A stretch of 59,707 bases of DNA from a virus: IMG/VR virus record IMGVR_UViG_3300025381_000002; one strand, 5' to 3'. Positions within the stretch are counted from its first letter, which is position 1; each line of letters opens with the position of its first letter. The position numbers and the translations under genes are program-made. Under the pieces are notes generated by a model. That model saw only the letters and a program-made list of their open reading frames with translations. It was not told the DNA's origin and ran no database searches. Shown here in pieces: positions 1-29,969 of the stretch.

Positions 1-316
1 ATCCGAATCAACAACCGTTTCCGATACAAACATATCAATAGCATCGTTCTTAGGTTCTTTATCTGAATCAACAGCTATATCTGATACCAATAACGTATCT
101 GCATCGTTCTTAGGTTCTTTATCCGAATCAACAACCGTTTCCGATACAGAGTCCGCAACTCAAAATTTCCCAGTAATAGAAAATACAAGTGCGACGTCTA
201 TTACTGATACTAATAGCGCTTCTGCATCTTTTATTGGTATTCGATCCGAATCAACAACCGTTTCCGATACAAACATATCAATAGCATCGTTCTTAGGTTC
301 TTTATCTGAATCAACA
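1..316. repeat. Terminal redundancy: nt 1-316 are identical to nt 59392-59707
   Basis: Base-by-base comparison of the two window ends shows an exact 316-nt match. It falls inside a tandem-repeat coding array. Confidence 0.9.
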
Positions 317-1316: not shown

Positions 1317-2999
1317 ATGTCAAGCACCTACTCACCTTCACTACGAATAGAACTCATCGGTGCCGGGGAACAATCTGGAACTTGGAACACAACCACTAAT
1401 GGTAACTTAGGAACATTAATAGAGCAATCTATTGCTGGAGTTACATCTATTTCAATGGTGGATGCTAACTATGCCCTTACAGCTTATAACGGTGTTTCAG
1501 ACCAATCAAGACAAGCCGTTATTGTTGTTAGTGGAACAAACTCAGCTATCAGAGATGTTATTGCGCCTTTAGTCACTAAAACATATTTAATTAAAAACAA
1601 TACTTCTGGTGGTTTTGCTATTAACGTAAGGGCCACAACAGGTGCTAGTGTGTCTATACCTAATGGTGTGACAAGCATTGTTTATTGTGATGGGACTAAT
1701 TTTAATTTAGGTATTGCTCAAACATCAACAGCTGCGGGCACTGGGATAAGCATAAGTGTAGCAGGCGCTACCACTACAGTAAATAACACAGGTGTGCTAA
1801 GTTACAATTCTCGTACAGGTAATGTTACTCCCGTATCGGGAGATGTTACAGGTGCGTTAGGTTATGTGCCGTTAGGCGCTTTGTCTGGAGCAATTACCAC
1901 ATCTGGTAATGTTGCTTCATTAGGTAGTTTTAGTTCAGCTCAATTAGCCACTGCATTAACTGACGAAACAGGTAGTGGAAGTAATGTTTTTGCAGTCAGT
2001 CCAACTTTAGTTTCTCCAGCGTTGGGCACACCTGCTTCTGGGGTATTAACTAATTGTACAGGTACAGCCGCAGGATTAACTTCTGGTAACGCCCTTACTG
2101 CAACAAATCCACAGAGTGGTGGGTCATTCATAACCTCTAGTAATATCGGCTCTCAGTCAGTTTCTTTTGCTGCCACTGCCGCTACGGCTAATTCTTTAAA
2201 TGCCGCCAATAGTTATTCTGCAACAGGTGTAACATCAACCAGCATTGATGCGGCTGGATTTGCATATCGGCTTGTTCCATCTTCTGTGGGTACTCAAACT
2301 ATTATTCAATGGGTAGATTATGCTCAAACCGTACAATGGACATCATTAGTTGGCTCAAATGGTCATTTAGGATGTACTAGCGCATTTGAAGCAACATCAT
2401 TTATAGGTCCTGGTACAGGGTTAAGAGGTACAGCTACTGATTTAACTGCTGGTAATGCTACTAATGCTACTAATGCTACTAATGCTACTAATGCTACTAA
2501 TGCTACTAATGCTACAACAGCGGCTAACTTAAATGGCACTTGGACACAGATGCCCGCAGGTACACGAGTCCCTTTTGCTCAAGCAGCAGCGCCTACAGGT
2601 TGGACGCAAGATACCACTGATACTGCTGACAACCGTATGTTACGAGTAGTTAATACAACTGGTGGTGGTGTGGGGGGTTCGGCTGACCCTACACTTAATA
2701 ATACAGTCCCTTATCATACACATGGTTTTACTACGGGGGGGCAAAGTGCTAACCACGTGCATTATGATGCTGGACATACACATGCTGTTGGAGGGACAAC
2801 TGGATCAAATATTGCCTATGCTGGGGCAGGTGGAGACGCAAGATATGCCCTTACACAAAACGCAAACACAGCAACAAGTTACGCAAGTTTGTTTGGAGTC
2901 AGTGTAGACCACACTCACTCAGGTGGAACAGACGGAGGTTCAAGCCAAACAAACTGGGCACCTCGATACATCAATTTAATTATTTGTGTTAAGTCATAA
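1317..2999 (+). CDS. Tail fibre protein with (NAT)7 repeat and His-x-His-rich collar-like C-terminus
   Basis: Contains the fibre-type motif LTDETGSGSNVFAVSPTLVSPALGTPASGVLTNCTG. The C-terminus has PYHTHGF, NHVHYDAGHTHAV and VDHTHSGG, then APRYINLIICV, typical of tail-collar/fibre tips. AAGGA lies upstream of the ATG. Confidence 0.8.
   Translation: MSSTYSPSLRIELIGAGEQSGTWNTTTNGNLGTLIEQSIAGVTSISMVDANYALTAYNGVSDQSRQAVIVVSGTNSAIRDVIAPLVTKTYLIKNNTSGGFAINVRATTGASVSIPNGVTSIVYCDGTNFNLGIAQTSTAAGTGISISVAGATTTVNNTGVLSYNSRTGNVTPVSGDVTGALGYVPLGALSGAITTSGNVASLGSFSSAQLATALTDETGSGSNVFAVSPTLVSPALGTPASGVLTNCTGTAAGLTSGNALTATNPQSGGSFITSSNIGSQSVSFAATAATANSLNAANSYSATGVTSTSIDAAGFAYRLVPSSVGTQTIIQWVDYAQTVQWTSLVGSNGHLGCTSAFEATSFIGPGTGLRGTATDLTAGNATNATNATNATNATNATNATTAANLNGTWTQMPAGTRVPFAQAAAPTGWTQDTTDTADNRMLRVVNTTGGGVGGSADPTLNNTVPYHTHGFTTGGQSANHVHYDAGHTHAVGGTTGSNIAYAGAGGDARYALTQNANTATSYASLFGVSVDHTHSGGTDGGSSQTNWAPRYINLIICVKS
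2454..2516 (+). repeat. 9-bp microsatellite (aatgctact) x7 encoding (Asn-Ala-Thr)7
   Basis: Seven consecutive in-frame 9-nt units lie inside the fibre gene. The last unit ends aca. Confidence 0.95.
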
Positions 3000-3022
3000 G
3001 TCATAAGTCGTAAGGAATAATA

Positions 3023-3250
3023 ATGGAAATTTTAATTACAGGTTATCAATATAAAAGCAATAAGCGGTTTAGTGCAATTTATGAGTTTCCACAACATAAA
3101 GACCAAGACCCTATACACATGCCACCTAATACTACATTAGTTGCGCCTCCAGTTAAACCTGAGGGTAAAGAAGCATTGTGGGATGGTAAAGACTGGAGTT
3201 TAGTTGATGAAGAAGTAATGCAGTCTAACGCTAACGCTAATGGAAATTAA
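3023..3250 (+). CDS. Possible tail fibre assembly/chaperone-like protein
   Basis: A 75-aa ORF directly after the fibre gene. The pattern PPNTTLVAPP...ALWDGKDWSLVDEE resembles tail-fibre-assembly proteins. Confidence 0.4.
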   Translation: MEILITGYQYKSNKRFSAIYEFPQHKDQDPIHMPPNTTLVAPPVKPEGKEALWDGKDWSLVDEEVMQSNANANGN

Positions 3251-3551
3251 AACAGTCTTAACATGTCCTTTGGGCAGTAGGTGCGAAGAGATTAAGGACG
3301 GCGCTATTCATCGCTGTGCGTGGTTTCAAACATTGGCTGGCACCAATCCAAACACTGGTGAGCAAGCAGATGAAAAAGGTTGCGCAATTGCGTGGATGCC
3401 TATGCTAATGATTGAAAACTCCATGCAACAACGTAGCACCAGCGCTGCGGTAGAATCTTTTAGGAACGAAACGGTGCAAGCTAATCAAAAAACACAGCAG
3501 ATATTGATGCTGTCTCAAACAAACAAAATGAGGTTAATCAATGATGAGTAA
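3240..3551 (+). CDS. Hypothetical protein
   Basis: A 103-aa ORF that overlaps both neighbours in the late operon. It contains several Cys residues. Confidence 0.45.
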   Translation: MEIKTVLTCPLGSRCEEIKDGAIHRCAWFQTLAGTNPNTGEQADEKGCAIAWMPMLMIENSMQQRSTSAAVESFRNETVQANQKTQQILMLSQTNKMRLINDE

Positions 3552-3747
3552 ACTATTGGCTATTTGGAATTTCATATATGATCGTATACAAGAACCTAGC
3601 ACCCATGCGTCTATATCTGCTTTATTAGGTATTGCTGGTTTGCAACTTGATACTGGTGTAATCCATGATGGTATGGTTGCTTTAAGTCTTATTTTTGGAG
3701 CTATCGGGATTGTTGTAAAAGAATATAAACCTGACCCTACTGTTTAA
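3541..3747 (+). CDS. Small membrane protein (holin-like candidate)
   Basis: 68 aa with two hydrophobic segments (ISALLGIAGLQL, GMVALSLIFGAIGIVV). Confidence 0.4.
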   Translation: MMSKLLAIWNFIYDRIQEPSTHASISALLGIAGLQLDTGVIHDGMVALSLIFGAIGIVVKEYKPDPTV

Positions 3748-3775
3748 AATAGCACGGGTATTAAAAGGGTAGCTC

Positions 3776-6115
3776 ATGCCATTAGCAAAACTTCAAATAA
3801 CTGCGGGTATTAATAGAGAAGGGACTAACTACTCTAATGATAATGGTTGGTATCAAAGTAATAACGTAAGGTTTCGTTCAGGTTTTCCTGAAAAAATCGG
3901 TGGTTGGGCTAATCATGATAATTCTACTTATTTAGGTACAGCACGTTCTCTTTGGAATTGGGTAGATTTTAATAGTCATAATTTATTAGCTGTTGGAACA
4001 AACTTAAAGTATTATATTAATTTTGGTGGAACGCTTTACGATATTACTCCTATTCGCGCCACATTTATATCACCTGTCACTAACAATTGTTTCACTACTA
4101 CTGCAAGTTCTACTACTGTTGTAGTAACTATACCTGCACATGGTGCAACCACAGGCGACTTTGTTACTTTTTCTGGTGCAGTCGCTGTTGATGGTATTTC
4201 AGCAGCCGCTTTAAATACCCAATATCAGATCACCTATTTATCTGCAAGCACATTTTCTATAACCGTTCCTTCTGCTGCCACATCGTCTGGTACTGGTGGG
4301 GGCACTGCGATTACTGCCGCTTTCCAAATGGTCACAGGTTTGGATGTTCATCCCGTAGGTACTGGTTGGGGCGCGGGTCCTTGGGGTAGAGGCGGTTGGG
4401 GGTCAAGTTATTCAGTAGGTGTAGGCGAGCAATTAATGCTCTGGTCTAATGATAACTTTGGTCAAGATTTAGTTTTTGCAGCTAGGGGCGGCCCAATATA
4501 TTATTGGAGTGGCACAACAGGATTAAATGTTCGTGGTGAATATTTATCTGACGTAACTAATACACAAACAGCATTAAGCACAGCGGCGACTTTTAATAGT
4601 GGTGCAACTACTATAAATGTTCAATTTCCTGCAGGTATTGTTGGCGGCTCTTTTGTATCTGGTGTTGGTATCCCTGCAGGGACTTATGTTGCATACACAT
4701 ATATTATTGGTTCTTCTACTGTGCCAATATCTACAACAACTACAGCGGCAAGTTCAGGCAATTATAATTTTACATACTCAGGTGCGTATGTCCCTGTGGC
4801 TACCAATCAAATATTGTGTTCTGCTGTTCAGCAATTTGTTATTGCGTATGGGGCTAATTCGTACGTTCCAAACACACCTGCAAGTACGTATGACCCTATG
4901 CTTGTCAGATGGTCAGATCAAGCTAATCCTTACCAATGGGTGCCTGATGTTACTAATCAATCTGGGGAGTATCGACTATCGCGTGGTTCTTTTATTATGG
5001 CAGCTCAAGTTACTCGCCAAGAAAATTTAATTTGGACTGACACATCGTTATATTCCATGCAATACATCGGTGCCCCGTATGTTTGGGGTATTCAAATGTT
5101 AATGGATAATATCACTATCATTTCTCCTAACGCGGCTATCACTGCTAATGGGGCTACTTTTTGGATGGGATTAGATAAATTTTATATCTATGAGGGTTCG
5201 GTAAGCACATTAAATTGTACGTTAAAACAATATGTTTTTACCGACATTAATCTTGACCAAGGGTTTCAAGCGTTTGCTGGTGGTAATTTTGGTTACAACG
5301 AAGTTTGGTGGTATTACTGCTCTGAAAACTCTACGATTGTAGATCGTTATGTTGTTTATAATTATGTAGAAAAAATATGGTTTTCAGGAAACATGACTAG
5401 GACAGCGTGGTTAGATTCTAGTTTACAACCTGCTCCAATAGCCGCTGCATATACCCCTTTATGCGCATTCCAAGGCTCTATATCAGGAACAACATTAATA
5501 GTGTCTTCCTTATACTATGGGACTATAACTATAGGTTCCTACATTACTGGTATGGGTATCATCACTGGCACTATTGTTACCGGGTATATCGCTTCTTCTG
5601 GTGGAGTAGGCACTTACGTTGTTAACTATTCTCAAACCGTTTCTTCGACTTCAATAGAAATGGTAACTACCAGCACGGGTCTTTTGTTAGCTCATGAAAC
5701 AGGTGTAGATAATTTGTCGGGTATCGCATCTGTACCTATTGATGCTTACATTCAATCATCTGATATTGATATAGAAGACGGTCAACACTTTGGTTTTGTA
5801 TGGCGCATACTTCCAGATATTAACTTTAATGGTTCTAATGTCAATAACCCGTATGTGGCTATGACCGTATGGCCTAGGTTAAATTCTGGTGCCCCATACG
5901 GAACGGCCGATGCACCAACAGTGACAAGTAATAATAATTATGCACCTCCTTATCCTCCTAACTCAAGTGTGTATATCGTTCAACAATATACTGGTCAGGT
6001 CTATACTAGACTACGAGGCAGGCAATTAAGTTTTAGAGTAGAGTCAAACTCATTAGGAACAGCATGGCAATTGGGTAATCCTAGGATAGATGTCAAGCAA
6101 GACGGCAGACGCTAG
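3776..6115 (+). CDS. Large tail structural protein (nozzle/tail-tube or spike-base candidate)
   Basis: 779 aa with a Gly/Thr/Ser-rich, beta-type composition. It lies between the fibres and the internal-protein block. The N-terminus is INREGTNY...VRFRSGFPEKIGGW. Confidence 0.55.
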   Translation: MPLAKLQITAGINREGTNYSNDNGWYQSNNVRFRSGFPEKIGGWANHDNSTYLGTARSLWNWVDFNSHNLLAVGTNLKYYINFGGTLYDITPIRATFISPVTNNCFTTTASSTTVVVTIPAHGATTGDFVTFSGAVAVDGISAAALNTQYQITYLSASTFSITVPSAATSSGTGGGTAITAAFQMVTGLDVHPVGTGWGAGPWGRGGWGSSYSVGVGEQLMLWSNDNFGQDLVFAARGGPIYYWSGTTGLNVRGEYLSDVTNTQTALSTAATFNSGATTINVQFPAGIVGGSFVSGVGIPAGTYVAYTYIIGSSTVPISTTTTAASSGNYNFTYSGAYVPVATNQILCSAVQQFVIAYGANSYVPNTPASTYDPMLVRWSDQANPYQWVPDVTNQSGEYRLSRGSFIMAAQVTRQENLIWTDTSLYSMQYIGAPYVWGIQMLMDNITIISPNAAITANGATFWMGLDKFYIYEGSVSTLNCTLKQYVFTDINLDQGFQAFAGGNFGYNEVWWYYCSENSTIVDRYVVYNYVEKIWFSGNMTRTAWLDSSLQPAPIAAAYTPLCAFQGSISGTTLIVSSLYYGTITIGSYITGMGIITGTIVTGYIASSGGVGTYVVNYSQTVSSTSIEMVTTSTGLLLAHETGVDNLSGIASVPIDAYIQSSDIDIEDGQHFGFVWRILPDINFNGSNVNNPYVAMTVWPRLNSGAPYGTADAPTVTSNNNYAPPYPPNSSVYIVQQYTGQVYTRLRGRQLSFRVESNSLGTAWQLGNPRIDVKQDGRR

Positions 6116-26252: not shown

Positions 26253-26936
26253 TTACTTATTCTTCCCATTATGGGGGCAGCTTAAAGTGCTACACCACTG
26301 CCTACATAGCCCATTAGGCTTAGGATTGAAAACGCCCGTATTATAGGCTATTTCTCTTTGAGTCAATAGCTCACTGTAAGTATTAAAAATGTCTAGCCCG
26401 TTAGCGGCTGTGAAGTCTTCTTTAATAAACTCTTTAGACACCACAAACAGTAAGGATGTTTTTATCTTTTTAATCTCTGGGTGTTTTAGAAATAGTGCAG
26501 CCGCCATAAGGGCAAGCTGTTTTATATCCGCATACTTAGCACTTTTGCCCGACTTATAATCCACTATCCAAGCCTTATCTCCATCAAGGATAACCAAGTC
26601 TGCCACACCCCTAAACCAAACAGAAGCATCGTCAAAATCACAATACTCCAATCTTCCTGTGCCATTCTTTTTTGTTCCTACTTTTAATTCGCATAGCTTT
26701 TCCCCCGATATTTTATTCAAATTATCTAAGTAAGGTTTAATAAAAGCAAACCTAGCGTCAATCTCTTTGCCGTCCCTTATGTATTCTTCAGCGGCTAAGT
26801 GCAGTTGCGTTCCATACAGGGTGGCTTCGGTCTCTTGATAACCTACTTCCTTAGTAACTCTTTCAGACTCATACTTTTTAGGGCAAGTACTAAATAATTT
26901 TATTGAACTAAACGACCATGCTGGGGGGTTTGCCAT
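26253..26936 (-). CDS. PD-(D/E)XK nuclease, Cas4/RecB-like with Cys cluster
   Basis: VADLVILDGDKAWIVDYKSGK is a D...D/E-x-K motif. There is one N-terminal Cys (STCPKKY) plus a C-terminal CRQWCSTLSC, as in Fe-S Cas4-type nucleases. Confidence 0.75.
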   Translation of the reverse strand: MANPPAWSFSSIKLFSTCPKKYESERVTKEVGYQETEATLYGTQLHLAAEEYIRDGKEIDARFAFIKPYLDNLNKISGEKLCELKVGTKKNGTGRLEYCDFDDASVWFRGVADLVILDGDKAWIVDYKSGKSAKYADIKQLALMAAALFLKHPEIKKIKTSLLFVVSKEFIKEDFTAANGLDIFNTYSELLTQREIAYNTGVFNPKPNGLCRQWCSTLSCPHNGKNK

Positions 26937-26937
26937 A

Positions 26938-29703
26938 TTATCCTGCTTCTTTTAATGTCCTACCAAATGCCCCCTCAGCGCCTAGTGGTATGCCAGGCAT
27001 CCATGTTGGTTCTTTGCACAGCTCCGCAATAATAAAGTCTAAGGCTTCTTGGGCTTCATCTTCAGGCACTACACAATAGCAACTATCATGGATAGTTAGG
27101 GCGATCTTATAGCGCTTGGTGATTCTCACCATCGCTTCCCCCATTATACACCTTGCTAAAGCCTGTATGGTATTTTGCACGGTTTTTGGGCCGTATATTC
27201 TACGGCGCGAACCTCTATGGCTAGCGTACGTCCACTCCGTGCCTGCCTCGGTGCGTATTTCTTTTAAATCAGGATATTTTAAATAGAGTCCTGACGGTAA
27301 CAACACGCCCCTCCTGCCCGCTACAGGTAAGTTAATCGTGCCAAAGGTTGCCGCTACATTGTCACGCATATCTTTTAATACTTGGCCGCCCTTAGCCCAA
27401 GTATTTTTAACCTCGCTAAACTCTTCCCTGTATAAGTCTACAATGCGTTTTGCTTCTGCTGCTCCTATATCTGTGCCCGACATAGCCCTAATAGACTCTC
27501 TTAACTTAACCGCCCCTGTACCAAAGCCAAGCCCAAGAACACAATTTAGGACTAGCACATTTCCAGCGGTGAATCGTTTTCTAGGCCCTGCGTCTAATAT
27601 GTCATAGACTCTAGCCTTGCTTTTAGCACTTTCCAATTTTTGCGCTTGTTGTGCACTGACTCCCATGCTTGTTGTATTATGTCTTCCCCTGTCAACCCTA
27701 AACGCACATACTTTCGAACCGTGGACATTTGAGTGTGGGGGTTTTCGTTCCATAGCGGGGCTAGAATTAACGCACCTTTCCAATCCACAAACACAGTATT
27801 TCGTCTGTTTTGTATTTGCTGCTGCCGATTTGCTAAACGCAAATTTGTTTTTGTATATCCTTTGTTGTTGTCCACTCTGTCTATTTCTACCCCCTTGTAG
27901 TCTTTGTGGGGTAAATGTTTTTCTACCCATAGAATAAACTCCATTCGGGAGGCAAACTCGCAGTATATCCCCCGCCCTCCATAATTCGGGTAGTTCCTGT
28001 TTTTGGGGTTTTGGCATCGGGCTATAATGGCATCGTACCTTCGACCTAAAGTTTCTGAGTGTTTTGATTTTGTTTGGGAGCATGATTGGCACCCTTTTGT
28101 CTTCCCCCGAGTAAGAGAAGACTTGTTTATCCATTTCTCCATTCCACATTGAGTACATTTTACGTACACCTAGATGCTCTTTCCTTGGCGGGTTATTTTG
28201 TCTGAAATAATCTGCACTAACCCGTATTGCCCGCCCACTAGCTCCTGTTCTAATAAGGGTTTCCATTCTGGATGCTGCGACCCCGAAAGGAATCGGCCCT
28301 TGCTCTGTGAATACACCGTGGTCTTCGGTAGCGGTGAGCCCATTGTAAGTGATGACATTTTTTTCCCCTTGGTAAATTACCCCTTTATGAGACACCCATT
28401 CTACCCCGTCCCATACCCTATCTTCAAGAGTTACTTTTTCTATAGCCTTTTCACCATGACTAGTTAACACTAATGTGCCCTCGGCAATGCAGGTTTTTCC
28501 TACAAAGCGTTGGTCTTTTGTTACTTCATCATAGGGTGCTTTAAATGCAGATGCAGCAAAGTCTTTATACAGGTCTTTACCTTCAGCAATAATCTTAAGC
28601 TTATCGAGCTGTCCTGAAAAATATAAACTCACTCTTAGCTCTATATTGCTTAAGTCAGCACCCACTATAACGTGCCCTTCTGGGGCTTGTATAGCTGATT
28701 TAATAGGTGATGTTCTAGGGATGTTCTGCATATTAAATGATACCCCACTCCACCTCCCCGATACATCCGCACCATAGTATTTAAGCGGTATAGGCAGGTA
28801 TCTATTTGTATGAGCAATCTCTATAAAAGTTTGGGTGCGGGTCTCTTCTATAGTAGATTTAGTGCCTAGTCTAGCCGCAACAATAGCTTGAACATCAAAG
28901 TCTGGGTAGTCTAATAATGCTTTCATATCCTCGTCAGTCTTAGCAAAGGCGTATGTTTCCTTACCCGTTGTGGGGCTTATCTTCATAGGTGGTACTACCC
29001 CATGCGATCTTAATACATCAGCGAATTTAGGATTAGACATTAAGTCCTCTTTAGCCATGCCACTAGCTGCCAGTAAATCTTCTTTGCGCCTTTTGGTATG
29101 GTGCAAGTGATCCTCTAGCGTAGGTAGGTCTAGGACAAAACTAGGCTCTGTGTGCATACGAATAGTCATATCAATGAGCTTTATCTCAATCCTATTAAAG
29201 TGTAGGGCTAAGTGGTTAAATAGTCCGTGAGTCAACTCTACATCGTTTATGCAATACTGGCCGTACTTAGCTAGTTCTTCTTCGCTAAAGTCTACTCGCC
29301 TAACCCCCATAGCACTGACTACTTCAGTGCCTTTCTGCCCTAACTCGTAATGCTCCGCTAGTTTGGCAAGTGACCCCCCTACTTCTGTGCCATGTACTGC
29401 CCTAGCCATAGACAAAGTGTCTATCCACAATTTAGGCTTTATGCCGAACTTCCACGTTAAAATAGTGGCATCGAATAAAGTGTTGTGGGCATACACCCAA
29501 GAATTTTCCCAATCAAACTGGGCTAACCATTTACTAGTCTCCTCCATTGTCCCGCTGAACCATTCAGCAGGGGCTTCATTTACTTTTACTGCTACTCCGA
29601 TAACCTCGAAGAGTGGGTGATCTATGTACTCTTGGGTACTTATTTTTGAGAGACTGTACTTTTTGTCGTAATAGGTCTCAAGGTCGACACCGATAATATC
29701 CAT
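26938..29703 (-). CDS. Family-A DNA polymerase precursor (605-aa polymerase plus 316-aa intein)
   Basis: Exo motifs DLET, NTLFDATIL and YCINDVELT. Pol motif A is GADLSNIELRV, motif B is split (RFVGKT / CVLGLGFGTG), and motif C is LTIHDSCY. Confidence 0.9.
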   Translation of the reverse strand: MDIIGVDLETYYDKKYSLSKISTQEYIDHPLFEVIGVAVKVNEAPAEWFSGTMEETSKWLAQFDWENSWVYAHNTLFDATILTWKFGIKPKLWIDTLSMARAVHGTEVGGSLAKLAEHYELGQKGTEVVSAMGVRRVDFSEEELAKYGQYCINDVELTHGLFNHLALHFNRIEIKLIDMTIRMHTEPSFVLDLPTLEDHLHHTKRRKEDLLAASGMAKEDLMSNPKFADVLRSHGVVPPMKISPTTGKETYAFAKTDEDMKALLDYPDFDVQAIVAARLGTKSTIEETRTQTFIEIAHTNRYLPIPLKYYGADVSGRWSGVSFNMQNIPRTSPIKSAIQAPEGHVIVGADLSNIELRVSLYFSGQLDKLKIIAEGKDLYKDFAASAFKAPYDEVTKDQRFVGKTCIAEGTLVLTSHGEKAIEKVTLEDRVWDGVEWVSHKGVIYQGEKNVITYNGLTATEDHGVFTEQGPIPFGVAASRMETLIRTGASGRAIRVSADYFRQNNPPRKEHLGVRKMYSMWNGEMDKQVFSYSGEDKRVPIMLPNKIKTLRNFRSKVRCHYSPMPKPQKQELPELWRAGDILRVCLPNGVYSMGRKTFTPQRLQGGRNRQSGQQQRIYKNKFAFSKSAAANTKQTKYCVCGLERCVNSSPAMERKPPHSNVHGSKVCAFRVDRGRHNTTSMGVSAQQAQKLESAKSKARVYDILDAGPRKRFTAGNVLVLNCVLGLGFGTGAVKLRESIRAMSGTDIGAAEAKRIVDLYREEFSEVKNTWAKGGQVLKDMRDNVAATFGTINLPVAGRRGVLLPSGLYLKYPDLKEIRTEAGTEWTYASHRGSRRRIYGPKTVQNTIQALARCIMGEAMVRITKRYKIALTIHDSCYCVVPEDEAQEALDFIIAELCKEPTWMPGIPLGAEGAFGRTLKEAG
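27544..28491 (-). mobile_element. Intein inserted in Pol A motif B
   Basis: Starts with Cys (CIAEGTLVLTSHG), has a TxxH block (LTATEDHGVFT), and ends RVYDILDAGPRKRFTAGNVLVLN followed by Cys+1. It is 948 nt (316 codons), and removing it restores motif B. Confidence 0.8.
27594..28169 (-). CDS. HNH_3/AP2-associated-type homing endonuclease-like gene nested out of frame inside the polymerase intein
   Basis: Its frame is offset by one nucleotide from the polymerase frame. TAG lies directly upstream, then a GTG start 7 nt after AAGGAAAGAG. The translation has a CTQCG...CQSC zinc ribbon, YGGRGI, and IDRVDNNKGYTKTNLRLANRQQQIQNRR. Confidence 0.7.
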   Translation of the reverse strand: MYVKCTQCGMEKWINKSSLTRGKTKGCQSCSQTKSKHSETLGRRYDAIIARCQNPKNRNYPNYGGRGIYCEFASRMEFILWVEKHLPHKDYKGVEIDRVDNNKGYTKTNLRLANRQQQIQNRRNTVFVDWKGALILAPLWNENPHTQMSTVRKYVRLGLTGEDIIQQAWESVHNKRKNWKVLKARLESMTY

Positions 29704-29969
29704 TCTTTTAACTCCGCTATATTGGTTTCATTAATAACCCACGCTATACCTTCCGCAGCTTTTATTCGTTCTATTTCCCTAGCCTGTATAGCCGTGGCTT
29801 GCTTGTTGCCCGCTTTTGTTTCAATGGCGATAAATAATCCTTGATGACAAATGATAAAATCAGGCACTGCTGATTTGCCATAACCTGAACCCACAGGCAT
29901 ACAGTACCAAGCGCCTACATCAACAAGGATTTCTTTAACTCTTTTTTTAATAGCGCCCTCGGGGGTCAT
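29640..29969 (-). CDS. VRR-NUC domain nuclease
   Basis: GKSAVPDFIICHQGLFIAIETKAGNKQATAIQ matches the VRR-NUC core. Its 3' end overlaps the polymerase start by 64 nt. Confidence 0.8.
   Translation of the reverse strand: MTPEGAIKKRVKEILVDVGAWYCMPVGSGYGKSAVPDFIICHQGLFIAIETKAGNKQATAIQAREIERIKAAEGIAWVINETNIAELKEWILSVSTLRPITTKSTVSQK

Follow-up and report, generated by a model that had tools for sequence, protein, structure and literature searches.

An intein in a viral family-A DNA polymerase gene that overlaps, out of frame, a gene for a homing-endonuclease-like protein

How can an intein house an endonuclease gene that is read in a different frame from the host protein around it, and is such an arrangement a real, maintained design? 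This question is raised by the family-A DNA polymerase gene in a 59,707-nucleotide (nt) stretch of viral DNA, IMG/VR virus record IMGVR_UViG_3300025381_000002, the whole of which we refer to as the window. An initial annotation, made from the sequence of the window alone, proposed that motif B of this polymerase is split by an intein whose endonuclease slot holds a complete, self-contained HNH-type gene in another reading frame of the same strand, and that no such intein had been described. All of the coordinates and sequence features on which it relied were confirmed when we re-read the window. Its overall reading, a mini-intein with an out-of-frame homing endonuclease gene (HEG), stands, but the completeness of the nested gene, its membership of the HNH_3/AP2 group and the lack of precedent do not. 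We consider it probable that the locus is a mobile composite, namely a class-1 mini-intein in motif B that carries, on the same strand and in the +1 frame, a gene for a zinc-ribbon HNH-like (beta-beta-alpha) homing-endonuclease-like protein of the free-standing type.

The evidence that carries this reading comes from the way in which the two overlapping frames evolve. In the 19 long genes of the window, alternative frames on the same strand carry stop codons at 6.9% (+1) and 10.7% (+2) of codons, and their longest open runs are 137 and 74 codons, respectively. When the nested open reading frame (ORF) of the window was subjected to 1000 synonymous-codon shuffles, the polymerase frame acquired a mean of 8.8 stops and never fewer than two, versus none in the actual sequence. 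The same holds for a set of 37 nested ORFs, in which no polymerase-frame stops were observed against 334 expected from synonymous shuffles, while the third frame holds between 2 and 22 stops per ORF. Codon-position variability was measured in 20 unique 309-codon inteins that align without gaps (Table 1). Because the most variable position switches to that of the nested frame at codons ~58-288, the middle of the insert is shown, at the level of substitution patterns, to evolve as coding sequence for the nested protein, with the polymerase frame there only held free of stops. In nearly all long copies, the +1 frame itself is free of stops from codon ~46 to codon ~290, although they are frequent just outside these limits. 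At the two ends of the overlap, where variability is depressed at all three positions, the sequence is constrained in both frames. Together, the stop avoidance and the wobble switch between frames show a signature of selection that keeps both frames across hundreds of diverged copies, as the initial annotation had proposed for the window.

This architecture is not confined to the window. A scan of viral contigs with an alignment of the intein yielded 282 relatives, of which 80 were fetched. Among these 80, all 75 viral loci with a match to the nested ORF have that match in the +1 frame with the polymerase frame open across it, and none has it in frame. A scan of bacterial and archaeal genomes added 54 more loci, about 40 of them with the same +1 architecture, complete Gardnerella and Megasphaera chromosomes among these. 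The 54 comprise, among others, loci on four complete Gardnerella chromosomes, in Megasphaera sueciensis, Anaerococcus, Peptoniphilus, Acidaminococcus, Allofustis and Streptococcus, and on one Parapusillimonas chromosome. Likewise, when phage records were searched by tblastn with the nested protein, the best full-length matches fell inside genes annotated 'DNA polymerase I', those of Streptococcus prophages (Javan113, Javan101 and others; PhiSdyV1524) and of Gardnerella phage vB_Gva_AB1. In the isolate records Javan113 and vB_Gva_AB1, the match is +1 relative to a continuous polymerase ORF with a 309-codon insert at the same motif-B position. The public records examined annotate only 'DNA polymerase' over the nested gene. 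The relatives' polymerases are only ~30% identical to that of the window, versus ~50% identity for the N-terminal intein halves; low identity of the host polymerases combined with higher identity of the intein is what a mobile element shared among hosts would look like. Both in-frame and intein-free alleles were sought among the relatives. Intein-free alleles were found and are described below, but an in-frame fusion of a nested-family gene was seen in none of ~115 loci, which span Bacillota, Actinomycetota, Proteobacteria and environmental phages, at least two insertion sites and both alternative frames.

The polymerase ORF is recognised by Pfam DNA_pol_A (E = 3.4e-21) and DNA_pol_A_exo1 (E = 4.8e-6) and by PHROG 17 (E = 1.6e-76), and the insert that splits its motif B has ends of the Hint type, with Cys1, the TxxH block, the terminal Asn and Cys+1 all read directly from the sequence. 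The insert runs from Cys1 (28491-28489) to Asn316 (27546-27544), and Cys+1 follows at 27543-27541. Block B, LTATEDH, which contains TxxH, occupies 28338-28318, block F starts with RVYDIL from 27612, and the end of the insert reads ...RVYDILDAGPRKRFTAGNVLVLN, then Cys. We modelled the 316-residue insert with AlphaFold2 using database homologues. The predicted local distance difference test score (pLDDT) is 95-98 for residues 1-95 and ~97 for residues 290-316, and 34-57 for residues 100-285. In a Foldseek search with this model, the ~40 best PDB matches are without exception inteins or Hint domains (probability 1.0, E = 1.5e-3 to 8e-2), among them the DnaX mini-intein 7cfv, gp41-1, the RecA mini-intein and Npu DnaE. 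Residues C1, T55 and H58 (TEDH), the terminal Asn and Cys+1 show no variation in a set of 17 diverse relatives. In the model, then, the ends of the insert fold as a Hint domain. The linker that the polymerase frame encodes between them is basic and of low complexity (37 K+R versus 12 D+E), matches no Pfam family and is disordered in the AlphaFold model, which bears out the earlier description of this slot as basic and without a recognisable endonuclease.

Where the nested gene begins is a separate matter, and here the initial annotation has to be revised. It had described a self-contained ORF at 27594-28169 with a TAG directly upstream (28170-28172), a GTG start and its own TAG (27594-27596) where block F starts. 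Each of these features is present as read, and a Shine-Dalgarno-like AAGGAAAGAG at 28177-28186 precedes the GTG with a score of -5.4 kcal/mol. The ORF is not a complete gene, however: the upstream TAG is TAT in the 98%-identical contigs L003-L005 (L numbers denote loci), and there the +1 frame is open for 260 codons across the nested-gene span. The change from TAT to TAG, which gives the polymerase frame Gly in place of Cys, is one of only 10 differences between the window and these contigs over the 948-nt intein. Judging from the comparison of copies, the family start of the nested gene is an ATG with a Shine-Dalgarno-like site ~63 codons upstream of the GTG, at 28358 in the window. The AAGGGGA upstream of this ATG gives a duplex with the anti-Shine-Dalgarno sequence of -7.6 kcal/mol, a value that only 2% of random positions attain and that is better than the median of -5.4 for 25 gene starts in the window. 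An ATG at intein codon 45-50 with a Shine-Dalgarno-like site is present in 24 of 29 unique long inteins (-5.6 to -12.9 kcal/mol), and in most copies a stop at codon 45-46 closes the +1 frame shortly before it. No Shine-Dalgarno-like site accompanies the conserved Met of the PEMVG motif. Since the relatives hold TAT and the ATG lies upstream, the apparent start made up of TAG, Shine-Dalgarno and GTG is best read as a by-product of a recent nonsense change. By this comparison, the window's nested copy is truncated or decaying. The GTG could permit re-initiation, which would give a 191-residue protein without the N-terminal motif, or the gene could be newly in decay.

Two further features lie near the ATG. 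A run of seven A residues at 28359-28365 (-) stands right before it (GGGGAAAAAAATG), and the polymerase frame there fits the A_AAA_AAT slippery pattern. Since L001 lacks the run, we do not take it for a frameshift signal. A sigma-70-like site (TTGAAG, 18 nt, TAGAAT) occurs at 28398-28427 (-), ~40 nt upstream of ATG 28358 and inside the Hint coding sequence; the count of such sites is not above shuffled expectation. As to the premature stop, recoding of TAG or a suppressor tRNA was considered and rejected. There are no tRNA genes in the window, and recoding is also argued against by the 13 of 67 ORFs of at least 100 amino acids that end in TAG, long ones included (such as 3776-6115).

We then asked what kind of protein the nested frame encodes. 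The nested protein is modelled by AlphaFold with a pLDDT of 92, and the model has strands at residues 95-98 and 110-113 followed by a helix at 115-120, a possible beta-beta-alpha topology as read from the secondary-structure string. It is matched by PHROG 374, 3377 and 2081, all 'HNH endonuclease', at E = 6e-26 to 3e-11 (374 and 3377 at 6e-26). The 81 BFVD fold matches at E<1e-3 are named HNH endonuclease, HTH homing endonuclease, AP2/ERF or PVL-ORF50-like, and free-standing homologues occur in Enterococcus, Acinetobacter, Bacillus and Pseudomonas phages, the names in each case being annotations. Conserved across the nested family are an N-terminal PEMVGxxFG, which is absent from the window's 191-residue form, a Cys4 ribbon (C5/C8/C27/C30), RCxNPxxxxYxxYGGRGI and EIDRIDNNGxYxxGNLRxxxxxxNxxN, with N109 and N121 invariant or nearly so. 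The HNH_3/AP2-type pattern noted initially is upheld only as far as the PHROG 'HNH endonuclease' families go (E = 6e-26). Membership of HNH_3 is not borne out: a Pfam search of the nested frame gave no match to HNH_3 for the window protein and E = 0.048 in one of 37 relatives, and an Arg occupies the catalytic His position. Endonuclease_7 does not match the nested protein.

Table 1. Features of the polymerase gene, its intein and the nested gene (positions in the window; codon numbers refer to the 20 aligned 309-codon inteins; a slash marks an insertion point or junction)
Feature	Position	Strand	Remarks
Family-A DNA polymerase gene, 3'-5' exonuclease and polymerase	26938..29703	(-)	921 codons with intein, 605 spliced
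Second intein site, empty, VQN/T	27169..27174	(-)	junction 27172/27171; occupied in relatives L003/L004
Class-1-type intein, 316 codons	27544..28491	(-)	in motif B, between VGKT and CVLGLGFGTG
N-terminal Hint half, residues 1 to ~95	28207..28491	(-)	block A CIAEG and block B LTATEDH; predicted from AlphaFold and wobble
Polymerase-frame read-through of nested gene, ~194-residue basic disordered linker	27625..28206	(-)	predicted from pLDDT and composition
C-terminal Hint half, blocks F/G RVYDILDAGPRKRFTAGNVLVLN	27544..27624	(-)	pLDDT ~97; wobble back to position 3
Nested-gene 3' fragment, 191 amino acids from GTG	27594..28169	(-)	+1 versus polymerase frame; covers Cys4 zinc ribbon, YGGRGI and DR...N...N core
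Ancestral nested +1-frame endonuclease-like gene, ATG 28358 to TAG 27594	27594..28358	(-)	interrupted by in-frame TAG in window
Premature TAG of nested gene	28170..28172	(-)	TAT (Tyr) in L003, L004, L005; window-specific
Shine-Dalgarno-like AAGGGGA	28364..28370	(-)	6 nt upstream of ATG 28358, within Hint coding sequence
Polymerase-type wobble	extein and intein codons 1-57		most variable: polymerase-frame position 3
Nested-type wobble	intein codons ~58-288		most variable: polymerase-frame position 1 (nested-frame position 3)
Return to polymerase-type wobble	intein codons from ~289		most variable: polymerase-frame position 3 again
Ends of overlap	intein codons ~49-60 and 286-297		all three positions depressed

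The relatives also bear on whether the element moves. Intein-free alleles of the polymerase were found in L084-L086 (98% amino acid identity) and L092 (97%), where the intein is replaced by an exact 948-nt gap. The empty site reads VGKT/SVLGLGF, with Ser where the intein-bearing allele has Cys+1, and the empty motif-B allele of L084 contains ...GTAGGAAAAACTAGCGTTTTAGGACTTGG.... Between the window and the intein-free alleles, 10 of the first 27 nt on the 3' side of the motif-B insertion point differ, as against ~2.7% elsewhere; these differences possibly represent a conversion tract or a target variant. The polymerase of the window also contains a second, empty site (Table 1), which in the 98%-identical L003 and L004 is occupied by a 302-codon intein at VQN/C with Hint ends and a +1-frame gene of the same family that stops at block F (L004 2501-3406). 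A co-conversion tract at this second site was considered and withdrawn, the intein-free L084-L086 having the same upstream flank. The L114 polymerase, which is 80% identical, has a different, 273-codon intein at the same motif-B site with the nested family in the +2 frame (2793-3521, ORF 1501-4137), and the genome loci L203, L204 and L207 also use the +2 frame.

Other polymerases have mini-inteins of 147-184 codons without a nested gene at the same site (L049, L063/64, L053/59). The polymerase region of L053/L059, 3001-4107 and beyond, holds two inteins; the one in motif B is the 184-codon mini-intein, and the second lies further downstream (LLCLGAKTQVLTDNGW...) with a +1 nested match at L059 4256-4669. 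Among the copies in bacterial genomes, nested ORFs that are interrupted while the polymerase frame stays open occur in L185 and L193, and short nested remnants of 28-91 codons are found within shortened inteins in L188, L190, L195, L197, L199 and L200. A human-gut contig, L083 (856-4455), has a mini-intein at motif B and, upstream, a split intein whose halves enclose a GIY-YIG gene, in the order N-terminal part, GIY-YIG gene, and C-terminal part starting with the C-intein (MKTYDILNAGPHNRF...SN). A related Hint domain is also present in a helicase-like gene (L082 3001-3516), whose flank resembles helicase motif VI by reading, and in protein P0086, where it is inserted in a protein with the Pfam helicase domains PF00270, PF00271 and PF04851. 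Taken together, the empty, mini-, intact, broken, remnant and split states match, as sequence states, a homing cycle and the invasion of mini-inteins by HEGs. This favours the initial proposal that a mini-intein was invaded by a HEG of the free-standing type and that the polymerase frame reads through the HEG, a proposal backed by the conserved offset, the stop avoidance, the HEG-free mini-inteins and the empty alleles.

Several results weigh against a splicing intein that carries a working endonuclease gene. On the side of the intein, the curated Pfam Hint_2 model scores E = 0.018 and 15.9 bits, below its cut-off of 28.4, a PDB profile search gives the DnaE intein at E = 0.017, and the penultimate His of block G is Leu in the window (LVLN), many relatives having LVHN. 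Some active inteins lack the penultimate His. Because the curated hidden Markov models are sub-threshold, the Hint assignment rests on the predicted fold, the invariant catalytic residues and the empty alleles. On the side of the nested gene, the window's copy is interrupted, and a scan for promoters and terminators around it found nothing above shuffled expectation. Its product and the 37-member family alignment have no significant match in Pfam, NCBIfam or PDB sequences, and among solved HNH structures I-HmuI by profile (E = 1.1) and PacI by fold (E = 1.2) are not significant. Where HNH proteins have their catalytic His, the nested family invariably has Arg (D97-R98, in EIDRVDNN), and the core contains no conserved His. 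The identification of the nested protein as a homing endonuclease is one of context and annotation; because it has no canonical His and no match to Pfam HNH or solved HNH proteins, its nuclease activity is an assumption drawn from these. With Asp-Arg in place of Asp/His-His, the nested protein may work in a non-canonical way, for instance by nicking or, like PacI, with a Tyr nucleophile, or it may be only a DNA-binding targeting factor.

These points leave room for other explanations of the locus, two of which would put the endonuclease back in frame. Had two compensating indels arisen in sequencing or assembly, an ordinary in-frame intein-HNH fusion could be hidden from view, and one window alone, in which the TAG is a single-base difference from the relatives, is not conclusive on this point. 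The initial annotation had itself raised such paired indels. We regard this artefact as having a negligible chance of being the explanation, since the same +1 offset with both frames open recurs in more than 110 independent loci from different assemblies and technologies, complete chromosomes and isolate phage genomes included, the sequences are only 57-70% identical at the nucleotide level, and the wobble switch and stop avoidance are evolutionary signatures, not errors. Ribosomes might instead shift +1 into the nested frame and back, or transcripts might slip, so that the endonuclease would be an in-frame domain at the protein level. The seven-A run directly before ATG 28358 suits such an event in the window, and a minor fusion of N-extein, N-Hint and endonuclease is possible. 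Frameshifting would, however, offer no reason to keep the polymerase frame open over 160-246 codons, with 0 stops where 334 are expected; moreover, L001 lacks the A-run, most copies have the +1 stop at codon 45-46 before the ATG, and the same gene family is found in the +2 frame of related inteins. With these facts in view, we find frameshifting very improbable as the general explanation.

The remaining two alternatives deny activity to one or the other half of the composite. The nested ORF might be dead everywhere, which would make the element a vertically inherited mini-intein with a long junk linker and no +1 translation. The premature stop in the window, the interrupted or remnant copies in some genomes and the absence of the canonical catalytic His speak for this. 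As the wobble pattern of 20 unique sequences shows, however, purifying selection acts on ~230 codons of the nested frame, the +1 frame is free of stops across the overlap in nearly all long copies, the nested fold is predicted with high confidence, and the presence or absence of the element among 98%-identical polymerases points to recent mobility, all of which makes a relic unlikely. Alternatively, the insertion might not splice and simply be tolerated in the polymerase, as the out-of-frame HNH insertion called ShiLan is in phage methylases (PMC11855218), a precedent with which the sub-threshold Pfam Hint models and the missing penultimate His of the window would agree. Against this, the insert ends fold as Hint in the model and have inteins as their only PDB matches; Cys1, TxxH, the terminal Asn and Cys+1 do not vary; and Cys+1 of the intein-bearing alleles stands in the place of Ser in the empty ones. 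Without splicing, interruption of the motif-B O-helix by 316 residues would be expected to be lethal in a family-A replicase, which is essential. We give a tolerated, non-splicing insertion scarcely any credence.

We therefore return to the mobile composite of mini-intein and nested gene, for which the following course can be proposed. Translation of the polymerase precursor would run straight through the overlap and place a basic, disordered loop of ~190 residues between the two parts of the Hint domain; splicing would then remove the intein together with this loop and restore motif B. The nested protein would be a translation product of its own, initiated internally at the ATG that follows a Shine-Dalgarno-like site in the N-Hint coding sequence (28358), and would end where block F begins. 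It would cut or nick intein-less polymerase alleles, and repair would copy the whole element into them, which is homing. The copy in the window would yield only the 191-residue product from the adjacent GTG, or its endonuclease would just be entering the decay phase of the homing cycle; in either case the intein in the window would still have to splice. Intein-free alleles and HEG-free alleles both exist. It is also conceivable, although on the sequences at hand we lean against it, that the out-of-frame design is evolutionarily stable and not a brief intermediate on the way to an in-frame fusion. If so, selection that keeps the nuclease apart from the intein polypeptide would be implied. Dosage or timing of the nuclease could then be uncoupled from the polymerase, or the Hint fold could be kept free of a bulky domain, and the polymerase-frame linker and the embedded Shine-Dalgarno-like site would be integral, co-adapted parts of the element.

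Elsewhere in the window, no further copy of the intein or of the nested gene was found, and a megablast search of the polymerase gene against 50,697 phage records returned no match. A PD-(D/E)XK nuclease gene at 26253-26936 (-) (PF12705, E = 1.4e-13) begins 1 nt past the polymerase stop, and a small ORF at 29640-29969 (-) overlaps the polymerase start by 64 nt and has a weak Hjc-like match (E = 1.6e-3), which is below the cut-off.

The origin of intein homing endonucleases is a long-standing question, and one proposal, 'splicing first', holds that a free-standing HEG invaded a mini-intein. In this family, the stages stand side by side in related polymerases: empty sites, mini-inteins, an intact overlapping HEG, a freshly broken HEG (the window), remnants, and a split intein with a GIY-YIG gene. 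The carriers include cultivable ones, namely the Streptococcus Javan prophages, Gardnerella phage vB_Gva_AB1 and Gardnerella and Megasphaera isolates, so that splicing, initiation and homing are directly testable. With ~230 codons, the overlap ranks among the longest and best supported that are known for same-strand dual coding in phages, and standard annotation misses it. For intein engineering, a Hint domain in which a disordered insert of ~200 residues is tolerated would also be of interest. The family stands out in that it is large, strictly avoids in-frame fusion, shows the complete decay series and has cultivable hosts, and these traits make the origin of the association between intein and endonuclease directly testable.

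The initial annotation knew of no intein with an out-of-frame nested endonuclease gene. That claim is refuted by Gosselin, Arsenault and Gogarten (bioRxiv 10.1101/2025.01.02.630785), who describe actinophage inteins with antisense LAGLIDADG, antisense VSR-like and same-strand, frame-3 endonuclease VII-like genes, propose that these originated when a free-standing HEG invaded an intein, and predict that such inteins are under-annotated. A second preprint (bioRxiv 10.64898/2026.09.14.751524, September 2026) concerns, by its title, an out-of-frame homing endonuclease in a cyanobacterial dnaX intein. Thus, the kind of intein reported here was already described in 2025-2026, and what we add is, on sequence grounds, a new large family and not a new category. 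The dnaX preprint aside, our literature search found no paper that describes the motif-B polymerase family with its +1 HNH-like gene.

The window's intein resembles those of Gosselin et al. in having its Hint halves in the host frame, an open host frame with an unstructured in-frame slot, a patchy distribution and an endonuclease ORF of the free-standing type nested in another frame, although the window's copy of that ORF has one TAG. It differs in the nested gene, which is a zinc-ribbon 'DR...N...N' HNH-like gene in +1 (+2 in some relatives) instead of the endonuclease VII-like gene in frame 3 of their same-strand case, and in its host, a family-A polymerase interrupted at motif B and carried by Bacillota, Gardnerella, Proteobacteria and environmental phages rather than actinophages. 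In addition, the nested ORF here overlaps the Hint coding blocks at both ends, whereas theirs lie mostly outside the splicing domain. The out-of-frame HNH insertion in methylases described by Arsenault et al. (ShiLan, PMC11855218) likewise consists of a same-strand HNH-type gene in an open host ORF, with a GTG or internal start proposed and a homing-like distribution. In ShiLan no splicing domain can be detected, and the insertion is believed to stay part of the methylase; the nested gene of the window, in contrast, lies between clear Hint halves, and its host protein, a polymerase, is essential.

The fractured genes of Dassa et al. (NAR 2009, PMC2677866), in which split inteins enclose an intervening free-standing HEG, share with the window a free-standing endonuclease gene at the endonuclease slot and a HEG 3' end that overlaps the C-intein coding sequence. 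They back the model in which a HEG invades an intein, and L083 shows their exact arrangement, with a GIY-YIG gene and at another site. The host of a fractured gene consists of two separate ORFs and requires trans-splicing, whereas the polymerase of the window is a single ORF of 921 codons, which is continuous because the overlapping frame is kept open. Finally, like inteins with an in-frame endonuclease, the window's intein occupies a conserved catalytic motif, has class-1 residues and has its slot between blocks B and F. Unlike in those inteins, the endonuclease-like protein is not a domain of the intein polypeptide, and none of the ~115 loci has it in frame.

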